Source: Verrucomicrobiia bacterium
GTDB taxonomy: Bacteria; Acidobacteriota; Terriglobia; Terriglobales; Acidobacteriaceae
DNA length: 64,000 nt
Reading direction: 5' to 3'
Assembly (NCBI GenBank): GCA_035523795.1
Contig: DATKQB010000113.1
Span: 999-64,998 of the forward strand
The position numbers were made by a program, and so were the translations under genes. Shown piece by piece: positions 36,645-63,465 of this stretch (the stretch's first letter is position 1; each line of letters begins with the position of its first letter). The notes under the pieces were generated by a model. It was not told where the DNA came from and ran no database searches. It was given only the letters and a program-made list of their open reading frames with translations.

Positions 36645-36666
36645 AGAAGCGAGCCAAACGCGCGAC

Positions 36667-39682: not shown

Positions 39683-39783
39683 AGCGCAGGATCTTGCAAG
39701 AAACAGACGATGAAGGCGAGCGGCCGCGCGCTTTAGAGAAGAAGCAAAGAAAGATCCCATTCCAACAGGAGAACTAAAATTTC

Positions 39784-43028: not shown

Positions 43029-43367
43029 ATGGTACATCTCATTCATTTCTTGAAACATGTCGCGGAATTGCTGGCGATTTTGGCCGGCGCGGGACTCGTG
43101 ATTTTTCTCGTCCTGTCAGTATTCATGGGACCGAGCGCGGCATGGAATCTCTACAAGCGCGCGTGGCAAGCATGGAAGGATCTGGCGCACAAGATCGGCA
43201 ACTTCCAGGCGCGTGTCATTCTATCGATCTTTTACGGAATTCTGGTGCTGCCGTTCGGGCTGGCAGCACGATGGTTCAGCGACCCCCTGCGGATCAAGAA
43301 GCGTCCCGAACAGTGGCTGGACCATCCCAACGAAGCCTACGATTTGGAGTGGGCGAGAAAGCAATAG
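43029..43367 (+). CDS. SxtJ-like small membrane protein
   Basis: 112 aa with two hydrophobic segments. KIGNFQARVILSIFYGILVLPFGLAARWFSDPL resembles SxtJ family proteins that accompany NodU/CmcH carbamoyltransferases. Confidence 0.6.
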   Translation: MVHLIHFLKHVAELLAILAGAGLVIFLVLSVFMGPSAAWNLYKRAWQAWKDLAHKIGNFQARVILSIFYGILVLPFGLAARWFSDPLRIKKRPEQWLDHPNEAYDLEWARKQ

Positions 43368-43373: not shown

Positions 43374-45152
43374 ATGTACATACTCGGAATCAGTTGTTAC
43401 TACCACGATGCCGCAGCCGTTCTGCTGGATGACGGCGTGTTGGTGGCGGCGGCGGAAGAAGAGCGCTTCACGCGCAAGAAGCACGACTTCGACTTCCCGA
43501 AGAATGCGATCAAGTTCTGCCTGGAGCAGGCGGGAATCACGGGGCATGATCTCGATTACGTAGTCTTCTTCGAGAAGCCCTTCCGCAAACTCGACCGCAT
43601 CCTGATGATGACACTGCAGACCTATCCGAAATCTTACAAGGTGTTTCGCGAGTCGATGATTACCTGGATGGTCGACAAGCTCTGGGTCGCCTCGAAGATT
43701 GAGAGCGAAGTTGGCGTCGACTACAACAAGATTCTGTTCAGCGAGCATCATCTTTCGCATGCTGCCAGTGCCTATTTCTGCTCGCCGTTCGAGGAGTCGG
43801 CAATTTTGACTGTGGACGGCGTCGGTGAATGGGTAACGTCGACCTATGGCGTGGGCAAGGGAAATGAAATTAAGATTCAGAAGCAGTTGGAATTCCCGCA
43901 CTCGCTCGGCTTGCTTTATTCGGCATTCACCGCGTTTCTCGGCTTCGAGGTGAATGAAGGCGAGTACAAGGTGATGGGCATGGCGCCCTATGGCGAGCCC
44001 AAGTACGTGGACAAGGTATGGAAGGTGATTCAGCAGAATCGTGACGGCTCGTTCTCGCTCGACATGAGTTATTTCAGCTTCCATCACTCAACCGAGCGGA
44101 CTTACAACGAGAAGTTTGCGGCTCTTTTCGGCGAGCCTCGGCCGGAGAAGATGCTGTTCTTCACGGAAGAGACGGGCTTTCCCAAATATTTTGGGGCACC
44201 TCCGTCGAACATGGCCGAGCTATCGAAGTTGAACAAGCACTATGCCGACATCGCCGCCAGCATTCAGAAGGTAACCGAAGACGTGCTGGTAGGTATGGCA
44301 AAGCATTTGCGGCAGACAACTGGCATGAAGAATTTGTGCATGGCGGGCGGCGTCGCGCTCAATTGCGTGGCCAACACGCGCATCCTGCACGAAGCTGGTT
44401 TTGAGAAGATGTATGTACAACCGGCTGCGGGCGATGGCGGCGGTGCTTTGGGTGCAGCATTGTGGGCATATAACACTCTGCTAGGGAAACCACGCACGTT
44501 CCATATGGAGCATGCCTATTGGGGGCGCGCGAACTCGGACTCCGAAATTGGAGACTTCCTCAAGGCGAACGGCATCAAGCACACTCGCTACGACGACGAG
44601 GACAAACTGCTCGATGCCGTGGTGAATCGATTGACTCAGGAGAATGTGATTGGATGGGCGCAAGGCCGATTCGAGTGGGGGCCGCGCGCGCTGGGAAGCC
44701 GCTCGATTCTGGCCGATCCGCGCAATCCAAACATGAAGGACATCGTCAACACGAAGATCAAATTCCGCGAGCCATATCGTCCGTTTGCGCCGTCGGTGCT
44801 GGCGCAGGCTGCGGAGAAATACTTTGATCTGCCCGATGCAGCCAAACATGATCCCGCGCGCTACATGCTCTACGTGGTTCCGGTGAAGCCGGAGGCGCAT
44901 GCGACCTTGCCTGCAATTACGCACGTGGATGGCACGGGCCGCTTGCAGACAGTGTTCAAAGAGCAGAGCCCACGGTATTACAAGATGATCGAGAAGTTCG
45001 GGCAGGCGACTGGCGTGCCGGTGGTGATGAACACGTCTTTCAATTTGAAGGGCGAGCCGATCGTCAACACTCCGGCCAACGCTCACAACACGTTCATCAA
45101 GAGCGAAATGGACGCGCTGGTGCTGGAGAACTTCATCATCGAGAAGAACTGA
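43374..45152 (+). CDS. carbamoyltransferase (NodU/CmcH/SxtI family)
   Basis: MYILGISCYYHDAAAVLLDDGVLVAAAEEERFTRKKHD, a Kae1/YrdC-like architecture, and C-terminal NTSFNLKGEPIV. AGGAG RBS. Confidence 0.93.
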   Translation: MYILGISCYYHDAAAVLLDDGVLVAAAEEERFTRKKHDFDFPKNAIKFCLEQAGITGHDLDYVVFFEKPFRKLDRILMMTLQTYPKSYKVFRESMITWMVDKLWVASKIESEVGVDYNKILFSEHHLSHAASAYFCSPFEESAILTVDGVGEWVTSTYGVGKGNEIKIQKQLEFPHSLGLLYSAFTAFLGFEVNEGEYKVMGMAPYGEPKYVDKVWKVIQQNRDGSFSLDMSYFSFHHSTERTYNEKFAALFGEPRPEKMLFFTEETGFPKYFGAPPSNMAELSKLNKHYADIAASIQKVTEDVLVGMAKHLRQTTGMKNLCMAGGVALNCVANTRILHEAGFEKMYVQPAAGDGGGALGAALWAYNTLLGKPRTFHMEHAYWGRANSDSEIGDFLKANGIKHTRYDDEDKLLDAVVNRLTQENVIGWAQGRFEWGPRALGSRSILADPRNPNMKDIVNTKIKFREPYRPFAPSVLAQAAEKYFDLPDAAKHDPARYMLYVVPVKPEAHATLPAITHVDGTGRLQTVFKEQSPRYYKMIEKFGQATGVPVVMNTSFNLKGEPIVNTPANAHNTFIKSEMDALVLENFIIEKN

Positions 45153-45319: not shown

Positions 45320-46567
45320 ATGGTTACAGCGATTGCACCGGCTGCCGTGAAGGTGGCGAGTCTCAGCGTGTTGTGCGTGCACAACCGCTACATCCAGCCA
45401 GGCGGCGAAGACCAGGTCTTTGAGTCGGAGTCGCGGCTGCTGGCAGAGAACGGCGTTCGGGTGCATAAGGTTGAAGAGCAGACCACGTATCCGAGCGGCT
45501 TGGTGCGGAAAATCGGAGCGGCGGTCGATTGCGTCTGGTCGCGCAGCTGGCATCAGAAGTTCAAAACGATTTTGCGCGATGTCCAGCCGGATGTAGTTCA
45601 CATCCACAACTTTTTCTCGGTGATCTCGCCTTCGATTTATTACGCGTGCAGGGAAGAAGGCGTGCCGGTGGTGCAGACGCTGCATAATTACCGGCTGGCG
45701 TGTCCGGCGGCGAGCTTCTATCGCGACGGAAAGATTTGCGAAGAGTGCATTGATCGCGGTCCATTTCACGCGGTGGGATATGGCTGCTATCGCGAATCGA
45801 AGCTGGCGACCGCGGCCTTGGCGGCGATGCTTGAATTTCATCGCACGCGGGAAACCTGGTCCGAGATGGTGGACTGCTACGTGGCGCTCACGGAATTTGC
45901 GCGGCAGAAAATGATACAAGGCGGCCTGCCGGCAGAGAAAATTGTGGTCAAGCCGAATTTTGTTCTTCCCGATCCCGGGCCACGGGCCTTCGACGGCGAA
46001 TATGCGTTGTTCGTCGGACGGCTGGTTGATTTGAAGGGAATCGGCACGCTGATCAAGGCGTGGTCTAAGCTTTCAGCACCGATTCCGCTGGTGATTGCCG
46101 GGGATGGACCATTCCGTCCGGAGATGGAGAAGCTGATCGCCGATCTGAAGCTATCGAATATCGATTATCGCGGACGCCTTTCGCGACAGGATACTTTGGC
46201 CGCGATGAGAGGCGCCCGCTTTTTGATATTTCCCAGCGAATGGTACGAAGGATTTCCGGTAACGATCGCGGAATCCTTCGCGTGTGGCGTTCCCGTGCTC
46301 TGCTCGCGGCTGGGCGGAATGCAGGAGATTGTGGAAGACGGCCGCACGGGTCTGCACTTCAATCCCGGCGATGTCGCGGACATTGCGGAGAAAGTTCAAT
46401 GGGCATGGCTAAATGAAAAGGAAACCCGCGCGATGGGAATGGCTGCACGCGCCGAATTTGAGTTGAAGTACAGCGCCGACAGAAATTTTGGGATGCTCAC
46501 TGAAATCTACGAGAACGTCATTGCTCGTACGAAAGGAGTCCGGGTTTCCCATGTCCACTCGTCTTGA
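45320..46567 (+). CDS. glycosyltransferase family 4 (GT-B, retaining)
   Basis: VLCVHNRYIQPGGED N-terminal domain and the E-x7-E motif region FPSEWYEGFPVTIAESFACGVPV. Confidence 0.9.
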   Translation: MVTAIAPAAVKVASLSVLCVHNRYIQPGGEDQVFESESRLLAENGVRVHKVEEQTTYPSGLVRKIGAAVDCVWSRSWHQKFKTILRDVQPDVVHIHNFFSVISPSIYYACREEGVPVVQTLHNYRLACPAASFYRDGKICEECIDRGPFHAVGYGCYRESKLATAALAAMLEFHRTRETWSEMVDCYVALTEFARQKMIQGGLPAEKIVVKPNFVLPDPGPRAFDGEYALFVGRLVDLKGIGTLIKAWSKLSAPIPLVIAGDGPFRPEMEKLIADLKLSNIDYRGRLSRQDTLAAMRGARFLIFPSEWYEGFPVTIAESFACGVPVLCSRLGGMQEIVEDGRTGLHFNPGDVADIAEKVQWAWLNEKETRAMGMAARAEFELKYSADRNFGMLTEIYENVIARTKGVRVSHVHSS

Positions 46568-48365
46568 TCAATTTATCGAGATTGGCCGGCAGGTAGCGCA
46601 GCATGCGGCTTCCGCACCGGATTCTCTTGCGGTGAAGGCCGGTGCTGAAAGTCTTAGCTATGCGGAGCTCGAAGCGCGGTCAAATCAATTGGCCGCACAT
46701 TTGCGTTCGTTGGGCGTGGGACCGGAGTCGCTAGTGGGGATTTTCCTCGAGCGGTCAGTAGAATCGGTAATGAGTTCATTGGCAGTGCTCAAGGCTGGAG
46801 CGGGGTATCTCCCGCTGAACCCCGCAACTCCTGAAGACCGGCTTGCATTCATGCTGCACGACTCGGATGTCGCAGTCGTGCTTACCCGGGAAGGTTTGGC
46901 GGGGAGACTTGGCGCGGGATCATGGAGCGTCGTAAAGCTTGACACTGATGCCGATCGCATCAAGACATTCCCCGTAGCAAATGTTGCAGTGGCCGCGAAA
47001 TCCGAGCATTTAGCCTACGTGGTTTACACGTCCGGTTCGACGGGGCAACCGAAAGGCGTGGAGATCACGCGCGGCGGGCTGGCAAATCTGATTGCGTGGC
47101 ACCTGCGAGCATTTGAAGTGACGGCTCAGGATCGCGCCAGCTTGCTGGCTTCCATCGGATTTGATGCGACCGTATGGGAACTGTGGCCTTACCTCGCAGC
47201 CGGTGCAAGCGTGCATATTCCAGAAGACTCGGTTCGGCAGCAGCCGGAACCGCTGCGCGATTGGATGGTCGAGGAAAAGATCACGATTTCATTTGTGCCG
47301 ACGCCGCTCGCCGAGATGCTGATTCAGCTGAACTGGCCAGCGGATACTGCGCTGCGCATTCTGCTGACGGGCGCTGACACACTGCATCGCCGTCCCGCGC
47401 AAGACCTGCCGTTCACTTTGGTCAACAATTACGGACCGACGGAGTCGACCGTGGTTGCGACGTCCGGAGTCGTTTTGCCTGTGACTGCGGATTCGAAACA
47501 GCCATCGATTGGGCGGGCGATCGACGGCACGCAGATCTTCATTCTTGACGAAGAAATGCAGCCGGTGGCTGCGGGAACTTCGGGCGAATTGTTCATTGGC
47601 GGAGCCAGTTTGGCGCGCGGGTATAGAAACCGTCCGGATCTTAGTGCGGAAAAGTTTGTGGTGAATCCGTTCAGCACCAGTAAGGATCGGCTCTACCGTA
47701 CGGGCGACCGCGCCAGGTTTCTGCCGAACGGCGAAATTGAGTTTCTTGGACGATTGGACGACCAGGTGAAGATCCGGGGCTATCGCGTAGAACTGGACGA
47801 GATTTCGAGCGTGCTGGATTCGCATTCGGAAGTAAAGGCGAGTACGGTCACGGTTTCGGGATCGGACGAGAAAAGGTTGATCGCCTATCTGGTGCTAAAT
47901 CCAAGTTGTCAGTGTACGGCCAGTGTGTTTCGCGAACACCTGCAACGTCGCCTGCCGGACTACATGATTCCAGCTGTGTTTGTTCGAATTGCCGCGTTGC
48001 CAGTGACCACGAATGGCAAAGTGGACCGGGCTGCGCTGCCTGCCCCCAATGGCAACGCGTTGCCCGAGGAAGCCTACGTCGCTCCGCGCAGCATTGTGGA
48101 ACAACGGCTGGCGGAATTGATCGCGCCACTATTGCATGTAGATCGCGTGGGCGCGAACGACAATTTCTTTCTGCTCGGTGGACATTCTCTGTTAGGGACA
48201 CAGCTGCTTACGCGAATTGGCGAAACTTTCGGAATAGAGCTGTCGCTGTTAGCCATTTTTGATCACCCTACCCTCGCGGGAATGTCGGGCGAGATCGAGC
48301 GGCTGATCCTTGAAAAAATCGAACCTCCCTCTGAGCTCTCCCAACCAGCAGGAGACTACCGGTAG
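46551..48365 (+). CDS. NRPS loading protein, adenylation-thiolation (A-T) didomain
   Basis: A3 LAYVVYTSGSTGQPKGV, A4 FDATVWE, A5 NNYGPTE, A7 YRTGD, A8 GRLDDQVKIRGYRVELDEI, A10 NGKVDR, T LLGGHSLLG. AAGGAG lies upstream of ATG 46551, and the gene overlaps the GT4 by 17 nt. The track ORF starts at 46488. Confidence 0.93.
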   Translation: MSTRLDQFIEIGRQVAQHAASAPDSLAVKAGAESLSYAELEARSNQLAAHLRSLGVGPESLVGIFLERSVESVMSSLAVLKAGAGYLPLNPATPEDRLAFMLHDSDVAVVLTREGLAGRLGAGSWSVVKLDTDADRIKTFPVANVAVAAKSEHLAYVVYTSGSTGQPKGVEITRGGLANLIAWHLRAFEVTAQDRASLLASIGFDATVWELWPYLAAGASVHIPEDSVRQQPEPLRDWMVEEKITISFVPTPLAEMLIQLNWPADTALRILLTGADTLHRRPAQDLPFTLVNNYGPTESTVVATSGVVLPVTADSKQPSIGRAIDGTQIFILDEEMQPVAAGTSGELFIGGASLARGYRNRPDLSAEKFVVNPFSTSKDRLYRTGDRARFLPNGEIEFLGRLDDQVKIRGYRVELDEISSVLDSHSEVKASTVTVSGSDEKRLIAYLVLNPSCQCTASVFREHLQRRLPDYMIPAVFVRIAALPVTTNGKVDRAALPAPNGNALPEEAYVAPRSIVEQRLAELIAPLLHVDRVGANDNFFLLGGHSLLGTQLLTRIGETFGIELSLLAIFDHPTLAGMSGEIERLILEKIEPPSELSQPAGDYR

Positions 48366-49650
48366 TGTCTCCAGATTTGCCCTGCAACGACGTGCCTTCC
48401 AGTTCTATGTCCTCTGCTTCAACCCCTTCCAGAGTCGAGCGTCCGGACACGGCATTGAGCCTGTATCACCTGCTTGACCCGCAGGTGCTGGCCAATCCGT
48501 ATCCGCTCTTCCATCGCCTGCGCCGGGAAGATCCGGTGCATTGGGATCCATTTCTGCACGCCTGGATCGTGACTCGCTACAACGATGTGATGGAAGTGCT
48601 GCACACTTACTCTGCCGACCGCACGCCCACGCCGGAACAACTTTCCGCCATGGGCTTGTCGCAGCTCAATCCCATTGCGCAGGTGATGGTGAAGCAGATG
48701 TTGTTCATGGATGCGCCTGCTCATGTACGCCTGCGCGGGTTGGCCTCGAAGGCGTTCACTCCGGCGCGCGTCGAGCAGTTGCGCGATCACATACGCGAGA
48801 TCGTGGATCGGCTGCTGGAAGGCATCGAGCCCAAAGGCGGCATGGATGTTATTGCCGATTTCGCCGAACCGCTTCCTGCGATCGTCACGGCCGAGTTGAT
48901 GGGCCTGCCGACGAGCGACTGGCGAAGGCTGAAAGCGTGGTCGGCCAACTTTGCCGAGATGCTGGGGAACTTCCAGCACAATCCGGAGCATGCCCCGGTC
49001 ATGCTGAAGACAGTCGAAGAAATGACCGGATACTTCCGCGATGCGGTACGGGAAATCACGGCGCATCCGCGGGAGGGACTGATTGATTCGCTGATCACGG
49101 CAGAGATCGATGGCGATCGATTGACCGAAGAAGAAGTCATCGCCAACGCGATCGTGACCATGGTCGGCGGGCAGGAGACGACGACCAATCTGATCGGAAA
49201 TGGTCTATTGGCCCTGCTACGAAATCCGCAGGAAATGGAGCGCGTGATTTCCGATCCGAAGCTGATTCCTTCGGCTGTGGAAGAAATGCTGCGCTACGAG
49301 AGTCCGAGCCAGCATACGGCGCGGCTGGCCCCGAGCGATAGGGAACTGGGCGGCAAGTCGATTAAGAAGCGGCAGGCAGTGATTGCCGTAATGGCAGCCG
49401 CGAACCGCGATCCGGAAAGATTTGCAGATCCGGACCGATTTGATATCACGCGCAGCGACAACCGGCATCTCGCTTTCGGATATGCGGCGCACTTCTGCTT
49501 TGGGGCGCCATTAGCGCGTGCCGAAGGCCAGATCGCATTTGAGCGAATGCTGAGCCGATTCCCGCATATCCGGCTTGAGCCGCAGAATCTCGTGTGGCGA
49601 ACCAATCTTGGATTACGCGGGTTGGTTTCGTTAAAGATCAGTTTTGATGG
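48365..49650 (+). other. cytochrome P450 domain of the NRPS fusion protein
   Basis: The Cys ligand codon TGC is at 49496-49498 within FGYAAHFCFG. The domain ends near SLKISF and is followed by a Ser/Thr/Pro/Lys-rich linker before C1. Confidence 0.85.
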
Positions 49651-52600
49651 CGGGAAAAGCGACGGGAAAAGTCCCCGGCCGGCAAGTACCGAGACTGTCT
49701 CCCAGACTCTGCCTCCGAACTCTAACACCGCTGGAAAAGTTTCCTCTGCTGCGACAAAGAACAGCCTGGTTGAGAAATATCTCAGCCAGCGGCCGCAACA
49801 GAGTCGCATCACAAAGCGAGCGCAAAGCGGTCCCGCGCCGCTGTCGTTTCCGCAGCAACAGATATGGCTGCATGCGCAGATTGCGCCCAATGTTCCGGTC
49901 TACAACGAGCCGGTAACCATCTACCGGGACGGTCCGCTGGACCTGGCGGCGCTGCAGAAGTGTTTTGCGGAAGTCATGCGCCGGCACGAAGCGTGGCGCA
50001 CAACCTTCGATGTGGTGAATGGTGAAGCGGTACAGATCGTGAATTCCGTTCCGGATCTCAAACTGCCGCTGGTCGATTTGCGCCATATGCCTGAGGCAGA
50101 GCGCGACAGTGCGGCGCTGAAACTGGCAACGGAAGACGCGCGCCGTCCCTTTGATTTGAAAAAATGTCCGTTGCTGCGGGCGCTGGTGGTGCGGCTAGGC
50201 GATGAGCGCTACCGAATTTACATCACACTGCATCATCTGATTTTTGATGGGCTTTCGATTTATCGCGTCTTTCTGCCGGAATTGGCGGCACTTTATGCAG
50301 CGTATTCGCGTGGGGAAGAGTCTCCGCTCGTGGAACTGCCTATCCAATACGCAGATTTTGCCGAGTGGCAGCGGCAATACATGCGTAATGGCGTGCTCGC
50401 GAAGCATCTCGACTATTGGCGGGAAAAACTGAGAGGGGAGTTGCCGGTGCTGGAGTTGCCGGCAGATTTCGCGCGACCTCCGGTGCAAACCTTCCGTGGC
50501 GCTATTCAGACGCTGCACCTCCCGAAAAATCTGAGCGATCGGCTCAAAGCTGTCAGCCGTGCGGAAAATTCCACGTTCTTCCTTACGCTGCTCGCCGCAT
50601 TTCAGACGCTGCTGCACCGCTACAGCGGGCAGGACGATGTCCTCGTAGGCACACTCGCAGGGGCACGCAAGCGATCAGAGCTTGAGAATCTGCTGGGTTG
50701 TTTTCAGAACCCGATTGTCGTGCGCACGGACTTCGGCGGCAATCCAAGCTTCCGACAAGTTCTAGGCCGTGTGCGGGAGAGCACGATCGGCGCGCTGGAA
50801 CACGACGAGCTTCCCTTTGAGCTGGTAGTGAAAGAGTTGCGCACGGAGCGCGATCTGAGCCGCAATCCGCTGGTGCAGGTTGCATTCACGCTTGTGCCTA
50901 AGGGCGCATCGCCGGATGCAGGCTGGAGCGCGGGGCAATGGGACGTGGACACTGGCGCGACCAAGTTCGACCTTTATCTGGAAATGGAGGACGGCGCCGA
51001 CGGACTGACAGCGCGCTTCATGTACCGCACCGATCTGTTTCGGGCGGACACGATCGAGCGGCTGAAAGCACATTTGAATGTCTTGCTCGAAGGAATCGCG
51101 GCCGATCCCTCAGCGAGCGTGCACACGCTGCCGCTGCTCAGCGAAAGAGAACGCCAGCAACTGCTTATTGATTGGAACGATTCACGGCTGGACTATCCCG
51201 ACAATCTTTGCCTCCACGAGTTGGTGCAGCGAGCGGCACAGCACTCGCCGCAAGTCCAAGCGGTGGTGTTTGGCGATCAAGCGCTCACATATCGTGAGTT
51301 GGATCAGCAGAGCGATGCGCTGGCGGCTGTTCTGGTTAAGACGGGCGTAACTCCTGAGCAATGTGTCGGGTTGTATTTCGAACGCTCGCTTGAGATGGTG
51401 GTTGCCATCATGGCGGTGCTGAGAGCCGGTGGCGCATGCCTGCCGCTGGATCCGGCGTATCCGCAGGAGCGCCTGGCATTCATGCTGGCGGACTCCAAGG
51501 CGCCGGTCGTGCTCACTACTTCGGAACTGCTGTCGCGGGTGCCCGACAGTCAAGCTCGCGTGATTTGCGTCGATCGAACGCAAGAAAAATGTGGGAGTGA
51601 GCTTGCCCGACAGACCAACCCGGATGGCATCGCTTATGTGATTTATACATCTGGTTCCACGGGCCAGCCGAAGGGAGTACGCCTGACGCATCGTGGGCTG
51701 GTGAATTCCACCTTGGCGCGCAGCGCGTATTACACCGCTTCGCCGAAAGTGTTTCTGCTGTTGTCGTCATTCGCTTTCGACAGTTCCCTTGCCGGAATTT
51801 TCTGGACTTTGGCGACCGGTGGCACGCTGGTCTTACCCCCAGATCAGTCCCGGTGGGATTTGGATGCGTTGCCCGGAATGATCCGCAAGCATCGGGTCTC
51901 GCACCTGCTCTGCGTCGCGTCGCTGTATCAGGCGATCCTCGAATCCGGCAGCCAGCGCGACTTCGAATCATTGCAGGTTGCGATTGTGGCGGGCGAAGCG
52001 TGCCTGCCCGGACTGATTGCACAACATTATGATCGGGCGCCTCAGGCGACGTTCTACAACGAGTATGGCCCGACAGAGGCGACGGTCTGGTGCTCCGTCC
52101 ACAAATGCGAACGGCAGACGGCGAACGCGGGGCGTGTACCGATTGGGCGGCCGATTGCGAACACAAAGTTGTATGTGCTGGATTCGCACATGCAACCTCT
52201 GCCCGTCGGAGTGAGTGGAGAGTTATGTGTTGCTGGTGCGCAGATGAGTGCCGGCTACCTAAATCATCCAGAGTTAAACGAAGGAAGATTCGTTCGTAGT
52301 CCGTTTTCGGCGGAAGAAAAGATGTACCGCACGGGGGATCGCGCGCGATATCTCGCCGACGGAAATATCGAGTGGCTGGGCCGTAATGACGGGCAGATCA
52401 AGCTGCGCGGATTCCGCATTGAATTGGGTGAGATCGAATCGGCACTGCTCTCGCATAAGGCGGTGCGCCAGTGCGTCGCTCAGATTCGCCAAGATCAGAC
52501 GGGGAAAGATCAGACAGGAAATGCAAGACTGGTTGCCTATGTAGTGCTCGAACCGGAAACAGCCGTTGAAGATCTGCGCGAGCATCTCGCAAGGCGCCTG

Positions 52601-55600
52601 CCGGCCCATGAAATTCCATCTGCGTTTGTGGTCCTCCCGTCGATCCCGCAGTTGCCGAATGGCAAAGTCGACGTTCGCCGACTACCGTCTCCGGAATCGC
52701 AAACGGAATCAAAGGCAGGTCCAATTGCGCCGCGCACACCTGTGGAAGAAGTGATTGCCGGGATTTGGGAGCAGGTGTTGAAGCTGCCCAGCGTCAGCGT
52801 GCGCGATGATTTCTTCGCCCTCGGCGGACATTCGTTGTTGGCGGCGAAAGTTGTTTCCCGGATCTTGCTGGCTCTCGATGTAGAGTTGACACTGCGCGCG
52901 ATCTTCGAGCGTCCCACGGTAGAAGGCCTGGCGGCGCTGATTGAGAGCAGTCGCAGCGAGCAATCGGCATCGGCGAGCATTCCGATCTCACGGATCTCTC
53001 GCGAGACGGATCCCCGGCTATCGTTTGCGCAGCAACGCCTCTGGTTCCTCGATCAGTTGGAGCCGGGCAATCCACTGTACAACGTTCCTTGTGCGGTGCG
53101 GATTTCCGGCGACTTGAACGTCCCGGCATTGGAGCGCAGCATCAACGAAATCATTCGCCGACATGAGATTCTGCGCACGCGTTTTGCCAGCCGTGCCGGG
53201 CAGCCGGTGCAGGTGATCGCGCCCTCGTTGAACATTCCGCTTCCGGTTACGGATTTGGAGCGCATTCCGCTGGCTGAAATCAGGGCTGATCAACTGGCCG
53301 CGGAAGAGGCGCGGCGACCTTTCAATCTTGGAGCCGGGCCGCTGTTGCGCGCGAACCTTCTCCGGCTTTCGGCTCAGCAGTATGTGCTGCTGCTAAGTAT
53401 TCATCACATCGCCAGCGATGAGACTTCGCGCGAAATCATCGTGAGGGAGCTGATTGCGCTCTATGAAGCGTTCTCGCAAAACAAGCCCTCTCCGCTGCCA
53501 GATCTAAGGATGCAGTATGCGGATTATGCGGCATGGCAGCGTGAATGGCTGCAAGGCGAGCCGCTGGAGAAAGAGTTGGCGCACTGGCGTCTACGCCTCG
53601 AAAGAGCTCCGGGATTGTTAGAACTGCCGGCCGACCGTCCGCGGCCTGCGGTGCAAAGTTTCCGCGGCGCGAACGAAACGGTCGAGCTTGATGCAGCTGT
53701 AGCGAGCCGATTGAAGGGTCTCAGCCAGCGCGAAGCCACGACGCTGTTCATGACACTGCTGGCGGCGTTCAATGTATTGCTGAGCCGCTACACGGGCCAG
53801 GATGACATTGTGGTAGGTTCGCCGTTTACGAATCGTCAGCGGGCCGAAGTGGAAGGGTTGATCGGATTCTTCGTCAATACCGTGCCGCTGCGCACCAGCC
53901 TTTCGGGTGACTTGAGCTTCCGGCAATTGTTGCAGCAGGTCAAGGCAACGGCGCTTGAGGCCTATGATCACCGCGAACTTCCATTTGAAAAGCTGGTCGA
54001 GTCGTTACGGCCAGAACGCAACTTAAGCTACAACCCGATGTTCCAGGTACTGTTCGCTGTTCAGAATAGCGCAGCAGTTACGGAGAAGGTGGCTGGCATC
54101 ACTCTTCAACTGCAGGACGTCGATACCGGAACCAGCAAATTCGATCTCACCTGCACCGTAATTTCCCACGACGACAAATTCGAAACCAATTTCGAATACA
54201 ACACGGATCTATTTGAGCCTGCGACCATCCGCCGGATGATCGATAGCTTTCACTCGATTTTGCAGGCGGTGGTTGAGAATCCGGAGATGCCGATTTCCCG
54301 GTTGCCGCTGCTGAATGAAAAAGCGCGGCAGCGGGTGCTGGCGGAGTGGAATGCAACCCAGAGCGCATATCCGAAAGAGAAGTGCATTCAAGAATTGGTG
54401 GAAGCGCAAGTCGCGCGGCAGCCTGAAACAATCGCCGTCGTGCATGAAGGCAACAAGCTCACGTATCGCGAATTGAACCAGCGTGCCAATCAACTGGCGC
54501 ACTATCTGCGCCAACAAGGCGTTGGGCCGGATGTGCCTGTCGGCGTGTGCCTGGAAAATTCGCTGGATTTGCCGATCGCTTTGCTCGCAGTACTCAAGGC
54601 GGGGGGCGCGGTTCTGGCACTCGATCCGGCATATCCCAAAGAACGACTGCAACTGATGCTCGAGGATTCAGGCGCTCCGCTGCTACTGTCGCGGGAAGGG
54701 TTGTTACCGGAACTCGCTGGCGGAAGCACAAAACGGCTGTGTCTGCTCTCCATCACGGAATTTGTGGAGCGCGAGAGCAGAGAAAATCCGGCGCGGATCA
54801 CTACGCCACAGAGCCTTGCCTACGTGATTTATACCTCGGGGTCGACCGGAAAGCCGAAAGGCGTGATGCTGACGCACGGTGGCCTGGTGAATTACATTTG
54901 CGCGGCAATTCAGCTCTACGATCTGCGCTCGAGCGATCGTTTCTTGCAGTTCTCGTCCATCAGCTTCGATATTGCGATAGAAGAAATCTTTCCGACCTGG
55001 TCCGCCGGGGCAACCCTGGTGCTGCGCTCGGGACATTTTTCATTGGCGGGCTCGGATTTCCTGCGCTTCGCGCGCCAACAAAAATTGACGGTCATTTCAG
55101 TGGCTACGGCCTACTGGCACGAACTGGTGCATGAGCTCTCGGAATCGGGAGCGGAGTTGCCGGATAGCTTGCGGCTGGTGATTGTGGGCGGAGAAAAGGC
55201 GCAAATCCAGGCGCTGGAGACGTGGAGGAAAGCGGCGGGTGATCGTGTGCGTTGGATCAACACCTACGGTCCGACGGAAACCTGCGTCATTGCGTCATCG
55301 TATGAGCCTTCGGCCTCCGGCTCGTTGCCTTCGCCGCTTCCTATTGGGCGGCCGGTGAGCAACGTGAAGATTCACATTCTCGATCGCAATCTGCAGCCCG
55401 TGCCGGTAGGGATTCCGGGAGAACTCCACATCGGCGGACCGGGTGTGGCCCGCGGATATTTGAATCATCCCGAACTGACGGCGGAGAAGTTCATTCGCGA
55501 TCCGTTCAGCACGAATCCCAATGCGCGGCTGTACAAGACGGGCGATCTGGCGCGCTATCTGGAAAATGGCGAAATTGAATTTGTGGGCCGTCGGGATTTT

Positions 55601-56950
55601 CAGGTGAAGATCCGCGGATTCCGCGTCGAGCTGGGAGAAATTGAGGCCGCGCTGGCGAAACATGCTTCCGTTCGCGAAGCGCTGGTGATCGCACGCGAGG
55701 AGGGCCTGAACAACAAGCGGCTGGTGGGATACGTGATTGCCGCGGCTGGATTTGGCCCCGATGCGAATGAACTGCGCAAGTTCCTCAAGCATCAATTGCC
55801 GGAATACATGGTGCCCTCGGACATCGTCGTAATGGAGGAATTTCCGCTAACGCCAAACGGTAAAGTGGATCGCAAGGCGTTGCCTGTGCCCGTTCCGAGC
55901 GCGATTGCAGGCGATCATGTGGCTCCAACGAATCCAACCGAGGCACAGTTGGTGGCGATGTGGGAGGAAATTCTTGCCCGCAAGCCGATCAGCGTGCGCG
56001 ACAACTTCTTTGATCTTGGGGGGCACTCGCTGCTGGCAGTGCGGCTGATGCGCCGTATTGAGCAAAGTTTCAAACGGAAGCTGCCGCTGACCACGCTATT
56101 CGAGGCGCCGACCGTCGAGCAATTCGCCGCACTGCTTCAGCAGAATGAGTGGAAGCCCTCGCAGGCGTCGTTGGTCGCGATTCAGCCGGAGGGAGATCGC
56201 GCGCCGTTCTTCTGCATCCACGGATTGGGCGGAACGGTTCTCCGCTTCAACGCGCTGGCTCGCCACATGGGAACGGATCGTCCTTTCTATGCGGTGCAGG
56301 CGCAGGGTCTCGAAGGGGACCGTGCATTTCACTCCCGCGTGGAAGAGATGGCATCGTTCTACATCAAGGAAATTCGGTCGCTGCAACCGGAAGGACCTTA
56401 TCACATCGGCGGCTATTCGCTCGGGGGCTTGATCGCGTTCGAAATGGCTCGGCAATTGCAGGCGGACGGTCAAGAAGTGGGATTACTGGCGCTGCTCGAT
56501 ACGTATCCCGGCAAACCGAAGTCGAGCAAGTTATTGCTAAAGACGCTGCTGAGACTGCCGCGGAAAGAACAAATCGACTACATCAAGCATCGCGCGAAAC
56601 GCATTCGCAAGGGAATCAGGCGGCGGATTGAAGCCCTGTTTCTTCCGCGGCCGCTCAAGCAAGTGCGCAGAGTATTTGCCGCAGCAGAAGAGAAATACAA
56701 GCCGCAGGTCTACTTCGGATCGGCGACGTGGTTCCGGGCGACCGAAAAGGGTTTACGCGGCGCGGACAATCCTACCGATGACTGGTCGAAGTGGGTGACT
56801 GGCGGCGTCGAGGTGCACGAGATTGTCGGCGATCACGGCAGCATTCTGAAAGAGCCCGACGTATGCCTACTGGCCGAAAGTCTGCGCGAATGCCTGAACC
56901 GGTCGGAAGAAGAACGCAGCGAAGCCGCACTCCAGGAACAGACAACATAA
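48365..56950 (+). CDS. cytochrome P450 fused to bimodular NRPS: P450-C-A-T-C-A-T-TE
   Basis: 2861 aa. P450 motifs: I-helix VGGQETT, EEMLRYESP, heme loop FGYAAHFCFG. C1 has HHLIFDG. A2 has YVIYTSGSTGQPKG and FAFDSS. T2 has LGGHSL. C2 has HHIASDE. A3 has YVIYTSGSTGKPKG and SFDIAIEE. T3 has LGGHSL. TE has GYSLGG. The GTG start overlaps the upstream stop by 1 nt (TAGTG). Confidence 0.93.
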   Translation: MSPDLPCNDVPSSSMSSASTPSRVERPDTALSLYHLLDPQVLANPYPLFHRLRREDPVHWDPFLHAWIVTRYNDVMEVLHTYSADRTPTPEQLSAMGLSQLNPIAQVMVKQMLFMDAPAHVRLRGLASKAFTPARVEQLRDHIREIVDRLLEGIEPKGGMDVIADFAEPLPAIVTAELMGLPTSDWRRLKAWSANFAEMLGNFQHNPEHAPVMLKTVEEMTGYFRDAVREITAHPREGLIDSLITAEIDGDRLTEEEVIANAIVTMVGGQETTTNLIGNGLLALLRNPQEMERVISDPKLIPSAVEEMLRYESPSQHTARLAPSDRELGGKSIKKRQAVIAVMAAANRDPERFADPDRFDITRSDNRHLAFGYAAHFCFGAPLARAEGQIAFERMLSRFPHIRLEPQNLVWRTNLGLRGLVSLKISFDGGKSDGKSPRPASTETVSQTLPPNSNTAGKVSSAATKNSLVEKYLSQRPQQSRITKRAQSGPAPLSFPQQQIWLHAQIAPNVPVYNEPVTIYRDGPLDLAALQKCFAEVMRRHEAWRTTFDVVNGEAVQIVNSVPDLKLPLVDLRHMPEAERDSAALKLATEDARRPFDLKKCPLLRALVVRLGDERYRIYITLHHLIFDGLSIYRVFLPELAALYAAYSRGEESPLVELPIQYADFAEWQRQYMRNGVLAKHLDYWREKLRGELPVLELPADFARPPVQTFRGAIQTLHLPKNLSDRLKAVSRAENSTFFLTLLAAFQTLLHRYSGQDDVLVGTLAGARKRSELENLLGCFQNPIVVRTDFGGNPSFRQVLGRVRESTIGALEHDELPFELVVKELRTERDLSRNPLVQVAFTLVPKGASPDAGWSAGQWDVDTGATKFDLYLEMEDGADGLTARFMYRTDLFRADTIERLKAHLNVLLEGIAADPSASVHTLPLLSERERQQLLIDWNDSRLDYPDNLCLHELVQRAAQHSPQVQAVVFGDQALTYRELDQQSDALAAVLVKTGVTPEQCVGLYFERSLEMVVAIMAVLRAGGACLPLDPAYPQERLAFMLADSKAPVVLTTSELLSRVPDSQARVICVDRTQEKCGSELARQTNPDGIAYVIYTSGSTGQPKGVRLTHRGLVNSTLARSAYYTASPKVFLLLSSFAFDSSLAGIFWTLATGGTLVLPPDQSRWDLDALPGMIRKHRVSHLLCVASLYQAILESGSQRDFESLQVAIVAGEACLPGLIAQHYDRAPQATFYNEYGPTEATVWCSVHKCERQTANAGRVPIGRPIANTKLYVLDSHMQPLPVGVSGELCVAGAQMSAGYLNHPELNEGRFVRSPFSAEEKMYRTGDRARYLADGNIEWLGRNDGQIKLRGFRIELGEIESALLSHKAVRQCVAQIRQDQTGKDQTGNARLVAYVVLEPETAVEDLREHLARRLPAHEIPSAFVVLPSIPQLPNGKVDVRRLPSPESQTESKAGPIAPRTPVEEVIAGIWEQVLKLPSVSVRDDFFALGGHSLLAAKVVSRILLALDVELTLRAIFERPTVEGLAALIESSRSEQSASASIPISRISRETDPRLSFAQQRLWFLDQLEPGNPLYNVPCAVRISGDLNVPALERSINEIIRRHEILRTRFASRAGQPVQVIAPSLNIPLPVTDLERIPLAEIRADQLAAEEARRPFNLGAGPLLRANLLRLSAQQYVLLLSIHHIASDETSREIIVRELIALYEAFSQNKPSPLPDLRMQYADYAAWQREWLQGEPLEKELAHWRLRLERAPGLLELPADRPRPAVQSFRGANETVELDAAVASRLKGLSQREATTLFMTLLAAFNVLLSRYTGQDDIVVGSPFTNRQRAEVEGLIGFFVNTVPLRTSLSGDLSFRQLLQQVKATALEAYDHRELPFEKLVESLRPERNLSYNPMFQVLFAVQNSAAVTEKVAGITLQLQDVDTGTSKFDLTCTVISHDDKFETNFEYNTDLFEPATIRRMIDSFHSILQAVVENPEMPISRLPLLNEKARQRVLAEWNATQSAYPKEKCIQELVEAQVARQPETIAVVHEGNKLTYRELNQRANQLAHYLRQQGVGPDVPVGVCLENSLDLPIALLAVLKAGGAVLALDPAYPKERLQLMLEDSGAPLLLSREGLLPELAGGSTKRLCLLSITEFVERESRENPARITTPQSLAYVIYTSGSTGKPKGVMLTHGGLVNYICAAIQLYDLRSSDRFLQFSSISFDIAIEEIFPTWSAGATLVLRSGHFSLAGSDFLRFARQQKLTVISVATAYWHELVHELSESGAELPDSLRLVIVGGEKAQIQALETWRKAAGDRVRWINTYGPTETCVIASSYEPSASGSLPSPLPIGRPVSNVKIHILDRNLQPVPVGIPGELHIGGPGVARGYLNHPELTAEKFIRDPFSTNPNARLYKTGDLARYLENGEIEFVGRRDFQVKIRGFRVELGEIEAALAKHASVREALVIAREEGLNNKRLVGYVIAAAGFGPDANELRKFLKHQLPEYMVPSDIVVMEEFPLTPNGKVDRKALPVPVPSAIAGDHVAPTNPTEAQLVAMWEEILARKPISVRDNFFDLGGHSLLAVRLMRRIEQSFKRKLPLTTLFEAPTVEQFAALLQQNEWKPSQASLVAIQPEGDRAPFFCIHGLGGTVLRFNALARHMGTDRPFYAVQAQGLEGDRAFHSRVEEMASFYIKEIRSLQPEGPYHIGGYSLGGLIAFEMARQLQADGQEVGLLALLDTYPGKPKSSKLLLKTLLRLPRKEQIDYIKHRAKRIRKGIRRRIEALFLPRPLKQVRRVFAAAEEKYKPQVYFGSATWFRATEKGLRGADNPTDDWSKWVTGGVEVHEIVGDHGSILKEPDVCLLAESLRECLNRSEEERSEAALQEQTT

Positions 56951-56973: not shown

Positions 56974-58404
56974 ATGATGAAGCCTTTGCCAGAAGAATCG
57001 AACACGAACGTCGCCCTATTGCCGGAACGGCCTCCGGAAGCCGCGTCGGAGGAGAAGTCTGCCAAGCTGCAGAAGATGATGCGCTGGGGCACGAAGGGTA
57101 GCCTTGCCATCCTGGAATACGGGTTGATCGCGGGCTCGAATTTTATCCTCGGCTTCCTGCTAGCTCGCTGGATGACTCCCGAACAATACGGAGCGTATGG
57201 ACTCGGCTTCAGCATTTTCCTGCTGCTTTCTTTTTTGTATCAGGCGCTGCTGCTCGAGCCGATGTCGGTTTATGGCGGCTCGACCTTCCGCGAGAATCTG
57301 CGCGGATACATGAAGACATCGCTCAAGATGCATCACGCGATTTCGGCGGTGATCTTCGTGGTTTTCGCGATTGCCGCCGCCGTGACGTACGGAATTGGCA
57401 GGTCGACCATCGATTTGCATCGTCAGCAGGAGTTGTTTGCGCTGGCGGGCGCGCTGGCTGGTTTGACGATTGCCGCGCCCTGCATTTTTCTGTTCTGGTT
57501 TGGACGACGCGGGTTCTATCTCAAGATTTCTCCGGGTCCTGCAGCGCTGGGAGCGGTGTTGTACTTCATTCTGGTGGTCGGTGGAGTCTTCGCCGTCAAC
57601 CGCCTGCACGTGCTGTCATCTTTTTCTGCATTCTTGCTGATGGGGCTGGCGGCGCTGGCATGCGGTATCGCTTTGATGATCGCGCTGAAATACGCGCTCG
57701 ATCCGGGCAGTGGAATCCCGGAATTGCGTCCCACGTGGAGCAAGCACTGGACGTACGGCCGCTGGGCGCTAGCCAGCTCGATCGTGGGATGGATTCCCAC
57801 TTATCTTTACTTTTCCATCGTCAGCATTTTTGCGGGTATGGCGCATGCCGGCGAGTTGCGCGCTTTGATGAACCTGGCGGGGCCAGTCCTGCAGACGTAT
57901 GCCGCGTTGTCGATGCTGTTTCTGCCTTATGCTTCGCGCGTGCAAAGCCAGGAAGGGAATCGCGGAACCTACGCATTAACGTGGAAGATGACGGCGCTGT
58001 TCACTGTAGGAGCGGTCGTCTATTGGGCCGCGGTGATTCCGTTCCGTGGGCAGATTCTGCATCTCCTCTATGCGAACAACTACTCGAATGTCGGCGTATA
58101 TCTGCCGTTTTTTGCGCTGGAAACGATTGTCTGGTCGGCGAGCGTCGGGGCATCGATCGTGCTGCGGGCGATGGAGTCGCCGCGATCAATCTTCTTCGCA
58201 AACTGCGCGGCCAGCGTTATCACGCTGGTGGTCGGAATTCCGGCCACGAAGTTATTCGGACTGTGGGGAGTCGTGTGGAGCATCATTCTTGCCAATACGG
58301 CGGCATTGGTGATGGTCATCATACTTCTGCGGCGAAAGGCCGCAGAGCCCAGCACCTCCACTCTGGAATTCACAACTCCGTTGCCCTTGGAAGATCAGAT
58401 TTAA
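56974..58404 (+). CDS. Wzx-like (MOP superfamily) oligosaccharide flippase
   Basis: About 477 aa with about 12 predicted hydrophobic helices. Its position and composition are typical of polysaccharide biosynthesis flippases. ATG 56974 is 24 nt after the NRPS stop; the track ORF start at 56791 lies inside the NRPS gene. Confidence 0.7.
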   Translation: MMKPLPEESNTNVALLPERPPEAASEEKSAKLQKMMRWGTKGSLAILEYGLIAGSNFILGFLLARWMTPEQYGAYGLGFSIFLLLSFLYQALLLEPMSVYGGSTFRENLRGYMKTSLKMHHAISAVIFVVFAIAAAVTYGIGRSTIDLHRQQELFALAGALAGLTIAAPCIFLFWFGRRGFYLKISPGPAALGAVLYFILVVGGVFAVNRLHVLSSFSAFLLMGLAALACGIALMIALKYALDPGSGIPELRPTWSKHWTYGRWALASSIVGWIPTYLYFSIVSIFAGMAHAGELRALMNLAGPVLQTYAALSMLFLPYASRVQSQEGNRGTYALTWKMTALFTVGAVVYWAAVIPFRGQILHLLYANNYSNVGVYLPFFALETIVWSASVGASIVLRAMESPRSIFFANCAASVITLVVGIPATKLFGLWGVVWSIILANTAALVMVIILLRRKAAEPSTSTLEFTTPLPLEDQI

Positions 58405-60047: not shown

Positions 60048-60054
60048 GGGGTAG

Positions 60055-60087
60055 GCGGGATCTCGTGAGAGGTCCCGCTTCTTTCTG
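60055..60087 (+). terminator. Rho-independent terminator
   Basis: GCGGGATCTC-GTGA-GAGGTCCCGC, a 10-bp stem with one G-U pair, followed by ttctttctg. It begins 8 nt after the stop at 60047. Confidence 0.7.
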
Positions 60088-63301: not shown

Positions 63302-63465
63302 TCTGCGGACCACTTTTTCGCGGCCCGGTTTTCTTCTTGTAGGGCAAAGAGTTCGTGCTAGAATTTCAAGCAATTAGTTAAAAAAGCCGCGTCGTTACTT
63401 TACCCGCCCCCATAGGACTTAGAAATCTGAACATTTCAAACCGAAGGTGAAAGGGGTCTATCTCA

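Follow-up and report, generated by a model that had tools for sequence, protein, structure and literature searches.

Non-ribosomal peptide synthetase genes interleaved with a conserved Wzx/Wzy polysaccharide locus in Terriglobia

We analysed a stretch of 64,000 nucleotides (the window) of contig DATKQB010000113.1 from the Acidobacteriaceae assembly GCA_035523795.1, in which genes for a non-ribosomal peptide synthetase (NRPS) lie inside a polysaccharide locus of the Wzx/Wzy type (Table 1). The plus strand holds every real gene from position 29753 to the window end, and the 22 genes from the first Wza export gene to a WecG-family glycosyltransferase gene are co-directional with intergenic gaps of at most 169 nt. 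The 5' half of the locus carries, in order, a NusG paralog of the UpxY family, two Wza genes, a chain-length determinant, an AAA ATPase and a tyrosine kinase. In the middle follow a hexapeptide acyltransferase, a dehydrogenase, a stand-alone adenylation (A) enzyme, an 87-amino-acid carrier protein, the priming phosphoglycosyltransferase (PGT), a carbamoylation cassette and a GT4 glycosyltransferase, and the 3' half consists of the NRPS gene pair, a Wzx candidate, a secreted protein of 504 amino acids, a sulfotransferase, Wzy and the WecG-family enzyme. The polysaccharide assembly set is full (PGT, GT4, WecG-family glycosyltransferase, Wzx candidate, Wzy, Wzz, kinase and two Wza), and two catalytically intact thiotemplate sets are interleaved with it, on both sides of the PGT gene. 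The feature is real and conserved, and it combines known machineries.

The first gene of the NRPS pair encodes an A-T didomain (T, thiolation or carrier domain); it opens with ATG at 46551, 12 nt downstream of a GGAG, and closes with TAG at 48365, and the GT4 stop at 46567 leaves the two genes overlapping by 17 nt. The second gene starts with a GTG at 48365 that shares one base with the A-T stop (TAGTG), ends with TAA at 56950 and encodes 2861 amino acids in the order P450-C-A-T-C-A-T-TE (C, condensation; TE, thioesterase), in which Pfam finds one p450, two Condensation, two AMP-binding, two PP-binding and one Thioesterase domain. Border gaps are −17 nt (GT4/A-T), −1 nt (A-T/large NRPS) and +23 nt (NRPS/Wzx candidate). 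An earlier reading of the letters alone (the original prediction) had placed the two proteins at these coordinates with this domain order, and had described the 17-nt overlap, a gene directly after the NRPS stop, three modules without a starter C domain, and a co-directional, effectively gapless position among glycan genes. Pfam domain calls and direct reading of the sequence and its junctions agree with it throughout, the gene after the NRPS starting with ATG 56974.

The carrier serine motif LGGHSL is found three times in the NRPS pair, in the A-T protein from residue 542 with the serine at residue 546, and the motifs TSGSTGxPKG and GRxDxQxKxRGxRxE are present in all three in-line A domains. 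Pfam assigns residues 1551-1990 of the large protein to the Condensation, 2013-2366 to the AMP-binding, 2528-2591 to the PP-binding and 2614-2829 to the Thioesterase domain of module 3, whose C domain has the motif HHIASDE, with E in place of the final G of HHxxxDG. The P450 motifs are intact (Cys ligand FGYAAHFCFG, I-helix GGQETT); its best matches in the Protein Data Bank (PDB) are BioI at 272 bits, an enzyme whose substrate is an acyl-ACP (acyl carrier protein), and PksS at 266 bits, scores that single out no aminoacyl-carrier hydroxylase clade. The TE is of type I by sequence, with an NRPS TE (7crn) as best PDB match. A six-frame regular-expression scan of the window returned neither an Sfp/AcpS-type phosphopantetheinyl transferase motif nor an MbtH-like motif; since phosphopantetheinyl transferase genes are often encoded elsewhere, the missing motif is no argument against function. 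A lipopeptide reading was rejected on the lack of a starter C domain and of a fatty-acyl ligase.

D...K specificity codes can be read in all four A domains, namely the three in-line domains and the stand-alone enzyme, which score 398-912 bits on TIGR01733; the codes come from an alignment to a GrsA fragment, checked for internal consistency of numbering. The A-T code is DAWFLGNVVK, the canonical Leu code, and the pattern DAWxLxNVVK is kept in orthologs, so that the loading didomain is predicted to activate Leu. The code of the terminal A domain (A3), DIESIGTVIK, has an acidic pocket and lies closest to the Lys code DAESIGSV, which suggests a Lys-like specificity. The predicted product of the NRPS would be (hydroxy)Leu-X-(Lys-like), the hydroxylation of Leu being suggested by analogy with known A-T plus P450 pairs.

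The second thiotemplate cassette, which the original prediction overlooked, occupies 36012-40047, across the PGT gene from the large NRPS. Its stand-alone A enzyme has the code DLFYLALVCK, identical in the printed alignment at nine of ten positions to the DLLYLALVCK of PltF, the L-proline-[L-prolyl-carrier protein] ligase; the code recurs unchanged in 52 of 56 orthologs, and the enzyme is predicted to activate L-proline. The dehydrogenase scores 481 bits against the prolyl-ACP dehydrogenase AnaB (4irn), followed by the next acyl-CoA dehydrogenase at 317 bits, and falls below the NCBIfam cut-offs of RedW (414 vs 650 bits) and PigA (412 vs 500 bits). The small carrier protein matches PP-binding at 3e-4 (21.4 bits vs a cut-off of 20.8) and is called as a gene in public assemblies. 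By these matches the locus holds a classical cassette for turning proline into a pyrroline- or pyrrole-carboxyl-carrier thioester, with a Pro-specific A enzyme, a carrier and an AnaB-like oxidase.

The protein encoded directly behind the TE has itself no Pfam or NCBIfam match, even at E ≤ 10. Among 30 aligned orthologs, 13 match Polysacc_synt or Polysacc_synt_3 (best 3e-7) and none matches any other Pfam family, MatE included; JGI names the homologs 'O-antigen/teichoic acid export membrane protein'. Its AlphaFold model (predicted local distance difference test score, pLDDT, 83.6) has 12 long helices, and the top Foldseek match is the lipid III flippase WzxE (9g9p) with a template modelling (TM) score of 0.81, MATE proteins and MurJ reaching at most 0.70. 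No other gene like those of the MOP (multidrug/oligosaccharidyl-lipid/polysaccharide) superfamily was found among the open reading frames (ORFs) scanned from 14.8 kb to the window end and for 10 kb past WecG, a scan in which several membrane or unknown ORFs of the locus gave no family match. A Wzy pathway needs a flippase, and the matches and the model suggest that this gene is Wzx-like; no second flippase candidate was found in the locus. The Wzx label given in the original prediction is thus supported by the orthologs, the JGI names and the WzxE-like fold and finds no echo in a family match of the window protein, while its Wzy call is confirmed by Pfam.

To place the locus among relatives, we used a scan of one genome per species, in which 540 matching stretches encode a relative of the P450. 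The best 80 loci were kept with 10-kb flanks and given L-numbers, and all window proteins were placed on them by tblastn; 60 loci are fully flanked, with at least 9 kb on each side. The P450 domain has hundreds of close homologs at 58-88 % identity, occurring either free (about 430 amino acids) or as a P450-C didomain, and those with a source name are labelled Candidatus Sulfotelmatobacter or Terriglobales. At least two core polysaccharide assembly or export genes (Wza, Wzz, kinase, PGT, Wzx or Wzy) lie beside the A-T/P450 core in 52 of the 60 fully flanked species loci. The usual order is NusG, Wza, Wzz, ATPase, kinase, the Pro cassette where there is one, PGT, A-T, P450, NRPS-TE and Wzx, followed by sulfotransferase and Wzy, or by GT4. 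A-T/P450 adjacency is kept in 77 of 80 loci and PGT stands directly before A-T in 32. A3-T-TE lies directly before Wzx, the TE-to-Wzx gap being below 300 bp in 54 of 55 loci, and when Wzx homologs were taken as the starting point, the gene stood immediately after an NRPS gene ending in a TE in all three look-ups. A minimal locus (L016) consists of PGT, A-T, P450-C-A-T-TE, Wzx, GH10, Wzy and WecG, and there the NRPS takes the usual place of the repeat-unit glycosyltransferases.

Flanking proteins of the relatives are only 45-65 % identical to those of the window, and identities fall as low as 45-60 % in the fully flanked loci, which indicates that the arrangement is old, and orthologs at 45-85 % identity retain full-length reading frames. 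Recent horizontal insertion was rejected on the basis of this deep synteny and of the uniform G+C, which is flat across the window at 0.54-0.59. The comparison of syntenic loci that had been proposed with the original prediction thus speaks against a recent insertion of the NRPS, most loci keeping the core among glycan genes. An assembly artefact is also unlikely, because the identical A-T protein occurs on contigs of four separate samples, with flanking genes of the locus wherever the contig extends; two long contigs among them hold the same locus. Individual relatives differ in content. One (L091, 4146-8975) is a full embedded locus without the P450, and another (L057, 8136-11359) keeps only A-T and P450, next to the same UDP-glucose dehydrogenase and GAF-TonB_C genes as are found upstream in the window. 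In a more distant relative, the complete genome OY969780.1 (L005; 5258-7820 and 12796-13950), the last A domain is Gly-like and the tailoring genes differ. In place of the proline cassette it encodes a flavoenzyme resembling Lys/Orn N-monooxygenases and an ATP-grasp-like protein, and between its P450-C and C-A-T-TE genes a 384-amino-acid protein without Pfam match that has homologs in five other loci.

The number of modules varies among these loci. In 40 of them the A-T gene is followed by P450 and C-A3-T-TE, fused or not, for two modules in total, and in the six loci of the window clade C1-A2-T is inserted ahead of C2-A3-T-TE to give three. Another 23 loci have a free P450, then a C-less A3-T-TE protein that starts in the C-A linker, then Wzx, and two loci have half a C domain left before A3; the sequence of L020 and Pfam domain calls for L090 and L091 confirm the C-less form. 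A tripeptide product, as originally predicted, therefore fits the window clade and does not extend beyond it. Of 72 terminal A domains, 51 have the A3 code DIE[DSN]IGTVIK. A separate C-A2-T-TE gene is encoded downstream of Wzx in 21 loci, past a GT4 gene and/or a CE4 polysaccharide deacetylase gene where these are present. Relatives thus have thiotemplate genes on either side of Wzx, of a GT4 gene and of a CE4 gene. CE4 occurs in 13 of 25 loci with no or a partial C domain and in none of 46 loci with a full one, and such a deacetylase could expose a sugar amine able to accept an aminoacyl group. The gene is found between Wzx and the separate C-A-T-TE gene in L090 (10486-11283), L091 (10444-11265) and 13 further loci. 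It also occurs once in L084, a locus with no A domain in range.

The proline cassette behaves as one block. The hexapeptide acyltransferase gene is present in all 42 loci in which the dehydrogenase, A and carrier genes were detected together, the four genes are present as a whole or not at all (no locus within range has a partial set), and their presence is independent of the number of C domains. We infer that the hexapeptide acyltransferase is a candidate for moving the carrier-bound Pro-derived acyl group.

Two types of unit tethered to carriers in these loci are without a condensation partner, namely the Pro-derived acyl group in every locus with a Pro cassette and the basic residue on the C-less A-T-TE protein in 23 loci. 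Such units need an acceptor outside the NRPS, unless they are lost by wasteful hydrolysis or released as a lactam, and the simplest acceptor is a unit linked to undecaprenyl diphosphate, because A3-T-TE is constantly placed after the PGT and directly before the flippase. We therefore propose that the peptidyl and acyl thioesters are transferred to the repeat unit of a Wzx/Wzy polysaccharide, itself sulfated and carbamoylated, while this repeat unit is lipid-linked, and that the genes from Wza to WecG, with the UpxY-type antiterminator gene at their head, form a single long operon-like unit; for the two statements together we put the chances at about even. The chemical link between peptide and glycan is what the gene arrangement leads us to infer.

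In the proposed pathway, the carrier protein would receive Pro, which would then be oxidised to give a pyrroline- or pyrrole-carboxyl thioester. As there is no C domain to take up this thioester, a sugar would be its acceptor, with the adjacent hexapeptide acyltransferase as the probable enzyme. On the A-T protein, Leu would be hydroxylated by the fused P450 while tethered, and the large synthetase would extend it to (hydroxy)Leu-X-(Lys-like). Instead of hydrolysing the product, the terminal TE would then acylate the repeat unit, bound to undecaprenyl diphosphate on the cytoplasmic side of the membrane, by linking the C-terminal carboxyl of the peptide to one of the unit's hydroxyl or amino groups. 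A dedicated Wzx, whose gene adjoins the TE, would flip the decorated unit, Wzy would polymerise it, and the Wzz, kinase and Wza machinery would export the decorated polymer, to which other tailoring genes would contribute carbamoyl and sulfate groups. In a wider form of this proposal, which we hold as a whole with somewhat less confidence, a little short of even, Terriglobia, which rank among the most abundant bacteria of soil and peat, would make a class of 'peptido-exopolysaccharides' not recognised before, with NRPS modules as repeat-unit tailoring enzymes whose thioesterase acts on the undecaprenyl-linked sugar shortly before Wzx flips it; the product would be a sulfated, carbamoylated polymer with cationic hydroxy-Leu/Lys-type peptides and a proline-derived acyl group, and the peptide part would evolve modularly, from one to three residues, around a fixed A-T-TE/Wzx junction.

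Several observations weigh against attachment to the repeat unit. No recognised peptide-to-glycan transferase (DltB/MBOAT, AlmG) was found in the locus, and the TE is an ordinary type I thioesterase by sequence, its match to the sugar-acylating TE of Pks13 reaching only 51 bits. With a C-terminal residue of Lys or Orn type, the product could leave by lactam formation instead. Five of the 60 fully flanked loci have the NRPS core but lack polysaccharide genes within 10 kb of it, as in L075 (8052-15427), where A-T, P450 and C-A-T-TE stand beside BON, AAA and recombinase genes. In more distant relatives embedded among exopolysaccharide (EPS) genes the last A domain is Gly-like and not of the basic type, so the attachment chemistry is not uniform. 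Within the window, a terminator-like hairpin at 60053-60080 may part the sulfotransferase, Wzy and WecG genes from the rest of the locus; it lies 6 nt past the stop of the 504-amino-acid protein gene and 25 nt ahead of the sulfotransferase start, and is the only strong hairpin of this kind in the locus. The same hairpin could act as an attenuator inside the locus, with the UpxY-type antiterminator allowing read-through.

It is conceivable that the locus makes a free small peptide, linear or closed as a C-terminal lactam and serving as a signal, metal binder or antibiotic, whose genes are merely co-transcribed with those for the polysaccharide and which the MOP protein exports. We regard this as unlikely, though it deserves the most serious attention among the alternatives. 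The stand-alone core in L075 and four other loci means that a free product is chemically possible, and the TE does resemble a standard releasing TE. The MOP fold is common to MATE drug and metabolite exporters (TM 0.6-0.7), but it is nearest to WzxE, the orthologs match Polysacc_synt and never MatE, the stand-alone version in L075 comes without this transporter, and a MOP protein given over to peptide export would leave the Wzy pathway of the window without a flippase. A C-less A-T-TE protein would spend ATP to release the same amino acid it had activated, unless a lactam is formed, and interleaving around PGT, Wzx, GT4 and CE4 in 52 loci is hard to explain by co-regulation alone. The Lys/Orn N-monooxygenase-like flavoenzyme of L005 is a siderophore-type tailoring gene; TonB-dependent receptor and siderophore uptake genes are absent from the locus, and with the flavoenzyme confined to that distant relative a siderophore reading was rejected.

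The products might instead go to another envelope acceptor (a membrane lipid, lipopolysaccharide, peptidoglycan or a secreted protein) and share with the polysaccharide only a role in surface remodelling. Carrier-bound units without a C-domain partner need an outside acceptor on this account too, and known carrier-dependent aminoacylations hit teichoic acid (Dlt) and lipid A (AlmEFG), not Wzy polymers. This is nevertheless improbable: the locus encodes no lipid-handling or MBOAT/LpxL-type transferase, the adjacency of TE to Wzx and of PGT to A-T points to a unit linked to undecaprenyl diphosphate, and the CE4 deacetylase co-occurs with the C-less type. We give very little weight to a last reading, in which A-T and P450 supply a free beta-hydroxy amino acid precursor, as do BpsD, OxyD and Bhp, and the rest is artefact or decay. 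A-T plus P450 pairs do supply precursors in glycopeptide antibiotic pathways, and L057 keeps only these two genes. All catalytic motifs are intact, however, and the orthologs retain full-length frames; the recurrence of the A-T protein in separate samples and of the locus on two long contigs argues against an artefact, and a C domain directly after the P450 makes A-T a normal loading module.

Attachment to the repeat unit would have partial parallels in known systems. Dlt carries out D-alanylation of teichoic acids and AlmEFG glycylation of Vibrio cholerae lipid A; in both, an A enzyme loads a small carrier and the aminoacyl group is bound for a surface glycan, as we propose here, and NCBIfam DltA models match the A enzymes of the locus at 266-341 bits. 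The locus departs from these systems in its C domains, TE, P450 and up to three modules, which would yield a peptide, and in its proposed acceptor, the Wzx/Wzy repeat unit; Pfam and NCBIfam scans of its genes revealed no MBOAT, DltD, AlmG or LpxL-type protein. Lipid II biosynthesis also places a non-ribosomal peptide on a lipid-linked saccharide that a MOP flippase translocates and that is polymerised outside, and the flippase model of the locus aligns with MurJ at a TM-score of about 0.65. It differs in using ATP-dependent Mur ligases on a sugar carboxyl, where the locus has a thiotemplate NRPS ending in a TE, and a SEDS/PBP polymerase, where the locus has Wzy; no cross-linking enzyme was identified in the locus. 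With the defining transferases absent, the locus is no member of the Dlt/Alm or lipid II systems, and the likeness is one of logic only.

Parts of the locus match known cassette types. The aminocoumarin proteins NovH and NovI pair an A-T didomain with a P450 acting on a tethered amino acid (the role predicted for the P450 here), and PltF/PltL/PltE and AnaC/AnaD/AnaB combine a Pro A enzyme, a small carrier and an oxidase of the acyl-CoA dehydrogenase type. By sequence, the Pro cassette is a member of its type and the A-T/P450 pair a probable member of the other; for the latter, compared with NovH/NovI, NikP1/NikQ and P450sky pairs, the conserved adjacency and the intact motifs agree, and the P450 clade is not singled out. 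Aminocoumarin loci, whose tailoring proteins include CloN3-N5 and NovN, also have a carbamoyltransferase within the same locus, and in clorobiocin a pyrrolyl-carrier thioester is transferred to a sugar hydroxyl. The aminocoumarin, Plt and Ana pathways differ in that they make small-molecule antibiotics or toxins, with a single deoxysugar or a polyketide synthase as acceptor, and no CloN2/CloN7-type transferase was found in the locus, where the conserved neighbour is the hexapeptide acyltransferase.

In the mycobacterial glycopeptidolipid locus, the NRPSs Mps1 and Mps2 are encoded with glycosyl-, acetyl- and sulfotransferases for one glycoconjugate. The likeness to the present locus lies in an NRPS encoded together with glycosyltransferases and possibly a sulfotransferase; there, however, a lipid-initiated peptide is the scaffold, single sugars are attached and export is by MmpL, whereas the locus has neither lipid loading nor MmpL and carries a full polymer pathway of Wzx, Wzy, Wzz and Wza. 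The EPS loci of the XrtA/PEP-CTERM type are closer in their export genes: the export, chain-length, ATPase and kinase proteins find their best NCBIfam matches in the PEP-CTERM set, and the stand-alone A enzyme scores 365 bits on TIGR03098 (acyl-CoA ligase, exosortase A-associated). XrtA loci with TIGR03098 and an acyl carrier protein are a noted, uncharacterised pairing with polysaccharide genes, and we know of no multimodular NRPS, P450, C or TE domain in them. Membership in the PEP-CTERM system was rejected, as every score stays below its cut-off (TIGR03015, 255 of 324.5 bits; TIGR03007, 143 of 279; TIGR03027, 87 of 180; TIGR03098, 365 of 592) and no exosortase was found among the scanned ORFs of the window.

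Off-loading from an assembly line to a sugar has precedents in the Pks13 TE, which transfers mycolate to trehalose, and in the lincosamide and streptothricin synthetases, in which a carrier-bound Pro derivative or beta-Lys is condensed to an amino sugar. These cases concern small sugars in lipid or antibiotic pathways, and Pks13 gives no specific support here, because the TE of the locus is closer to ordinary NRPS TEs than to that of Pks13. A full-text literature search of incomplete coverage found no NRPS within a Wzx/Wzy, O-antigen, capsule or acidobacterial EPS locus, which is absence of evidence only.

Given that an NRPS in a glycan operon is conserved in most of the 60 related species genomes, the locus probably yields a peptide-decorated polymer so far undescribed. 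If the peptide is attached, the locus joins the NRPS and Wzx/Wzy pathways, which are usually treated apart, and makes of the NRPS a polysaccharide tailoring enzyme; a zwitterionic, peptide-bearing, sulfated polymer would be expected to have unusual metal-binding and adhesion properties. The ecological reach could be considerable, as the locus is found in 52 of the 60 fully flanked species-level Terriglobia genomes, whose hosts dominate acidic soils and peat, and Terriglobia exopolymers affect soil aggregation, water retention and carbon storage. For genome mining, many 'NRPS clusters' of Acidobacteriota may encode no free natural product. The C-less A-T-TE protein beside Wzx offers a handle on whether a thioesterase can acylate a lipid-linked sugar.

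Among the remaining genes of the locus, the UpxY-family NusG paralog is the first of the co-directional block, separated by 516 nt from the next gene; a NusG paralog heads 24 related loci as well, and an antitermination role is predicted from its family. The tandem Wza-like proteins, of 245 and 240 amino acids with one SLBB domain each, are far shorter than E. coli Wza and may need a separate outer-membrane barrel partner, of which none was identified. A hydrophobic stretch in the translation suggests that the GDSL/SGNH protein of the carbamoylation cassette is membrane-anchored. The starts of the sulfotransferase, Wzy and WecG genes are those of public gene calls.

The 504-amino-acid secreted protein has no Pfam, NCBIfam or PDB sequence match, and its more than 6000 homologs, with paralogs within single genomes, are all 'hypothetical'. 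Its model is a confident beta-propeller (pLDDT 84) with weak fold matches (TM at most 0.43) to endosialidase, to PL25 ulvan lyase, an enzyme whose substrate is a sulfated polysaccharide, and to GH43. A GH10 gene takes the same position behind Wzx in 24 related loci, and the protein is possibly a glycanase.

Table 1. Features of the locus with their window coordinates, strand and supporting matches
Feature	Coordinates	Strand	Evidence
UpxY-family NusG-paralog antiterminator	29753-30358	+	NCBIfam antiterm_UpxY NF033644 126.6 bits vs cut-off 100; Pfam NusG 1e-19
Two tandem Wza/OPX (outer-membrane polysaccharide export) genes	30875-31612, 31667-32389	+	Poly_export 3.9e-17 and 1e-15, each with SLBB
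Chain-length determinant	32430-33989	+	Wzz 1e-6; TIGR03007 143 bits
AAA ATPase, XrtA/PEP-CTERM-associated type	34002-35048	+	TIGR03015 255 bits, cut-off 324.5
Tyrosine autokinase	35089-35919	+	EpsG/TIGR03018 about 87-90 bits; TIGR01007 77 bits, cut-off 108
Hexapeptide-repeat (left-handed beta-helix) acyltransferase	36012-36644	+	Pfam Hexapep 8.6e-12
Predicted prolyl-carrier-protein dehydrogenase, acyl-CoA dehydrogenase fold	36814-37959	+	Best PDB match 4irn
Stand-alone adenylation enzyme	38075-39682	+	TIGR01733 398 bits; code region best matches PltF (6o6e)
Stand-alone carrier protein, 87 amino acids	39784-40047	+	Serine motif GVIDSLG; Pfam PP-binding
Priming PGT	40130-41566	+	Pfam Bac_transf 1.4e-71; TIGR03025 427 bits vs cut-off 296
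DUF5989 gene, carbamoylation cassette	41653-41832	+	DUF5989 2e-20
GDSL/SGNH protein, carbamoylation cassette	41934-43001	+	Lipase_GDSL_2 2.6e-13
SxtJ-like small membrane protein	43029-43367	+	Weak match only (0.033)
Carbamoyltransferase	43374-45152	+	Carbam_trans_N 2e-88, Carbam_trans_C 5e-70
GT4 glycosyltransferase	45320-46567	+	Glycos_transf_1 2.4e-33
A-T loading didomain	46551-48365	+	Pfam AMP-binding 1e-75, PP-binding 3e-14
P450 domain, N-terminal in large NRPS	48365-49714	+	Pfam p450 1.8e-24
Module 2, C1-A2-T	49814-52954	+	Pfam; C1 motif HHLIFDG; A2 code DSACIAEVWK
Module 3, C2-A3-T-TE	53015-56851	+	Pfam; C2 HHIASDE, TE GYSLGG; A3 code DIESIGTVIK
Divergent Wzx-type (MOP superfamily) flippase candidate	56974-58404	+	Ortholog Pfam matches, AlphaFold model
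Secreted beta-propeller protein, 504 amino acids	58533-60047	+	N-terminal hydrophobic signal-like segment in translation
Terminator-like hairpin	60053-60080	+	12-bp stem, 7 G-C pairs, T-rich tail; strongest plus-strand scan match
Sulfotransferase	60105-60926	+	Sulfotransfer_1 3.6e-34
Wzy polymerase	60947-62473	+	Wzy_C 3.5e-14
WecG/TagA-family glycosyltransferase	62498-63301	+	Glyco_tran_WecG 5.4e-56

An Rfam scan of the whole window gave no match, and a scan for sigma-70 consensus promoters returned fewer sites than shuffled sequence, the consensus being uninformative for this phylum. The minus-strand ORF at 63463-63999 (178 amino acids) was rejected as spurious; it is covered by a plus-strand gene for an NAD-dependent epimerase/dehydratase, which in identical contigs starts at window position 63466 and runs past the window end. 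Downstream, these contigs carry the epimerase, a second sulfotransferase and a second carbamoyltransferase.

Upstream of the locus sit housekeeping genes (DnaE, AccA) and signalling genes. The latter encode a hybrid PAS/GAF histidine kinase of 1173 amino acids (11250-14771, minus strand), a response regulator whose HD_5 domain is of the HD-GYP type (14818-15999) and a protein with a PilZ domain (19129-19743), a neighbourhood suggestive of control of the polysaccharide by cyclic-di-GMP. The gene immediately before that of the antiterminator (26140-29484, plus strand) encodes a protein of 1114 amino acids made of Ig-like repeats of the ASH/Cep192/DUF1573 type, and in an identical contig (L087) the locus is followed by a repeat protein of similar kind that has FG-GAP repeats. 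These Ig-like repeat proteins flanking the locus may be surface proteins associated with the polymer.

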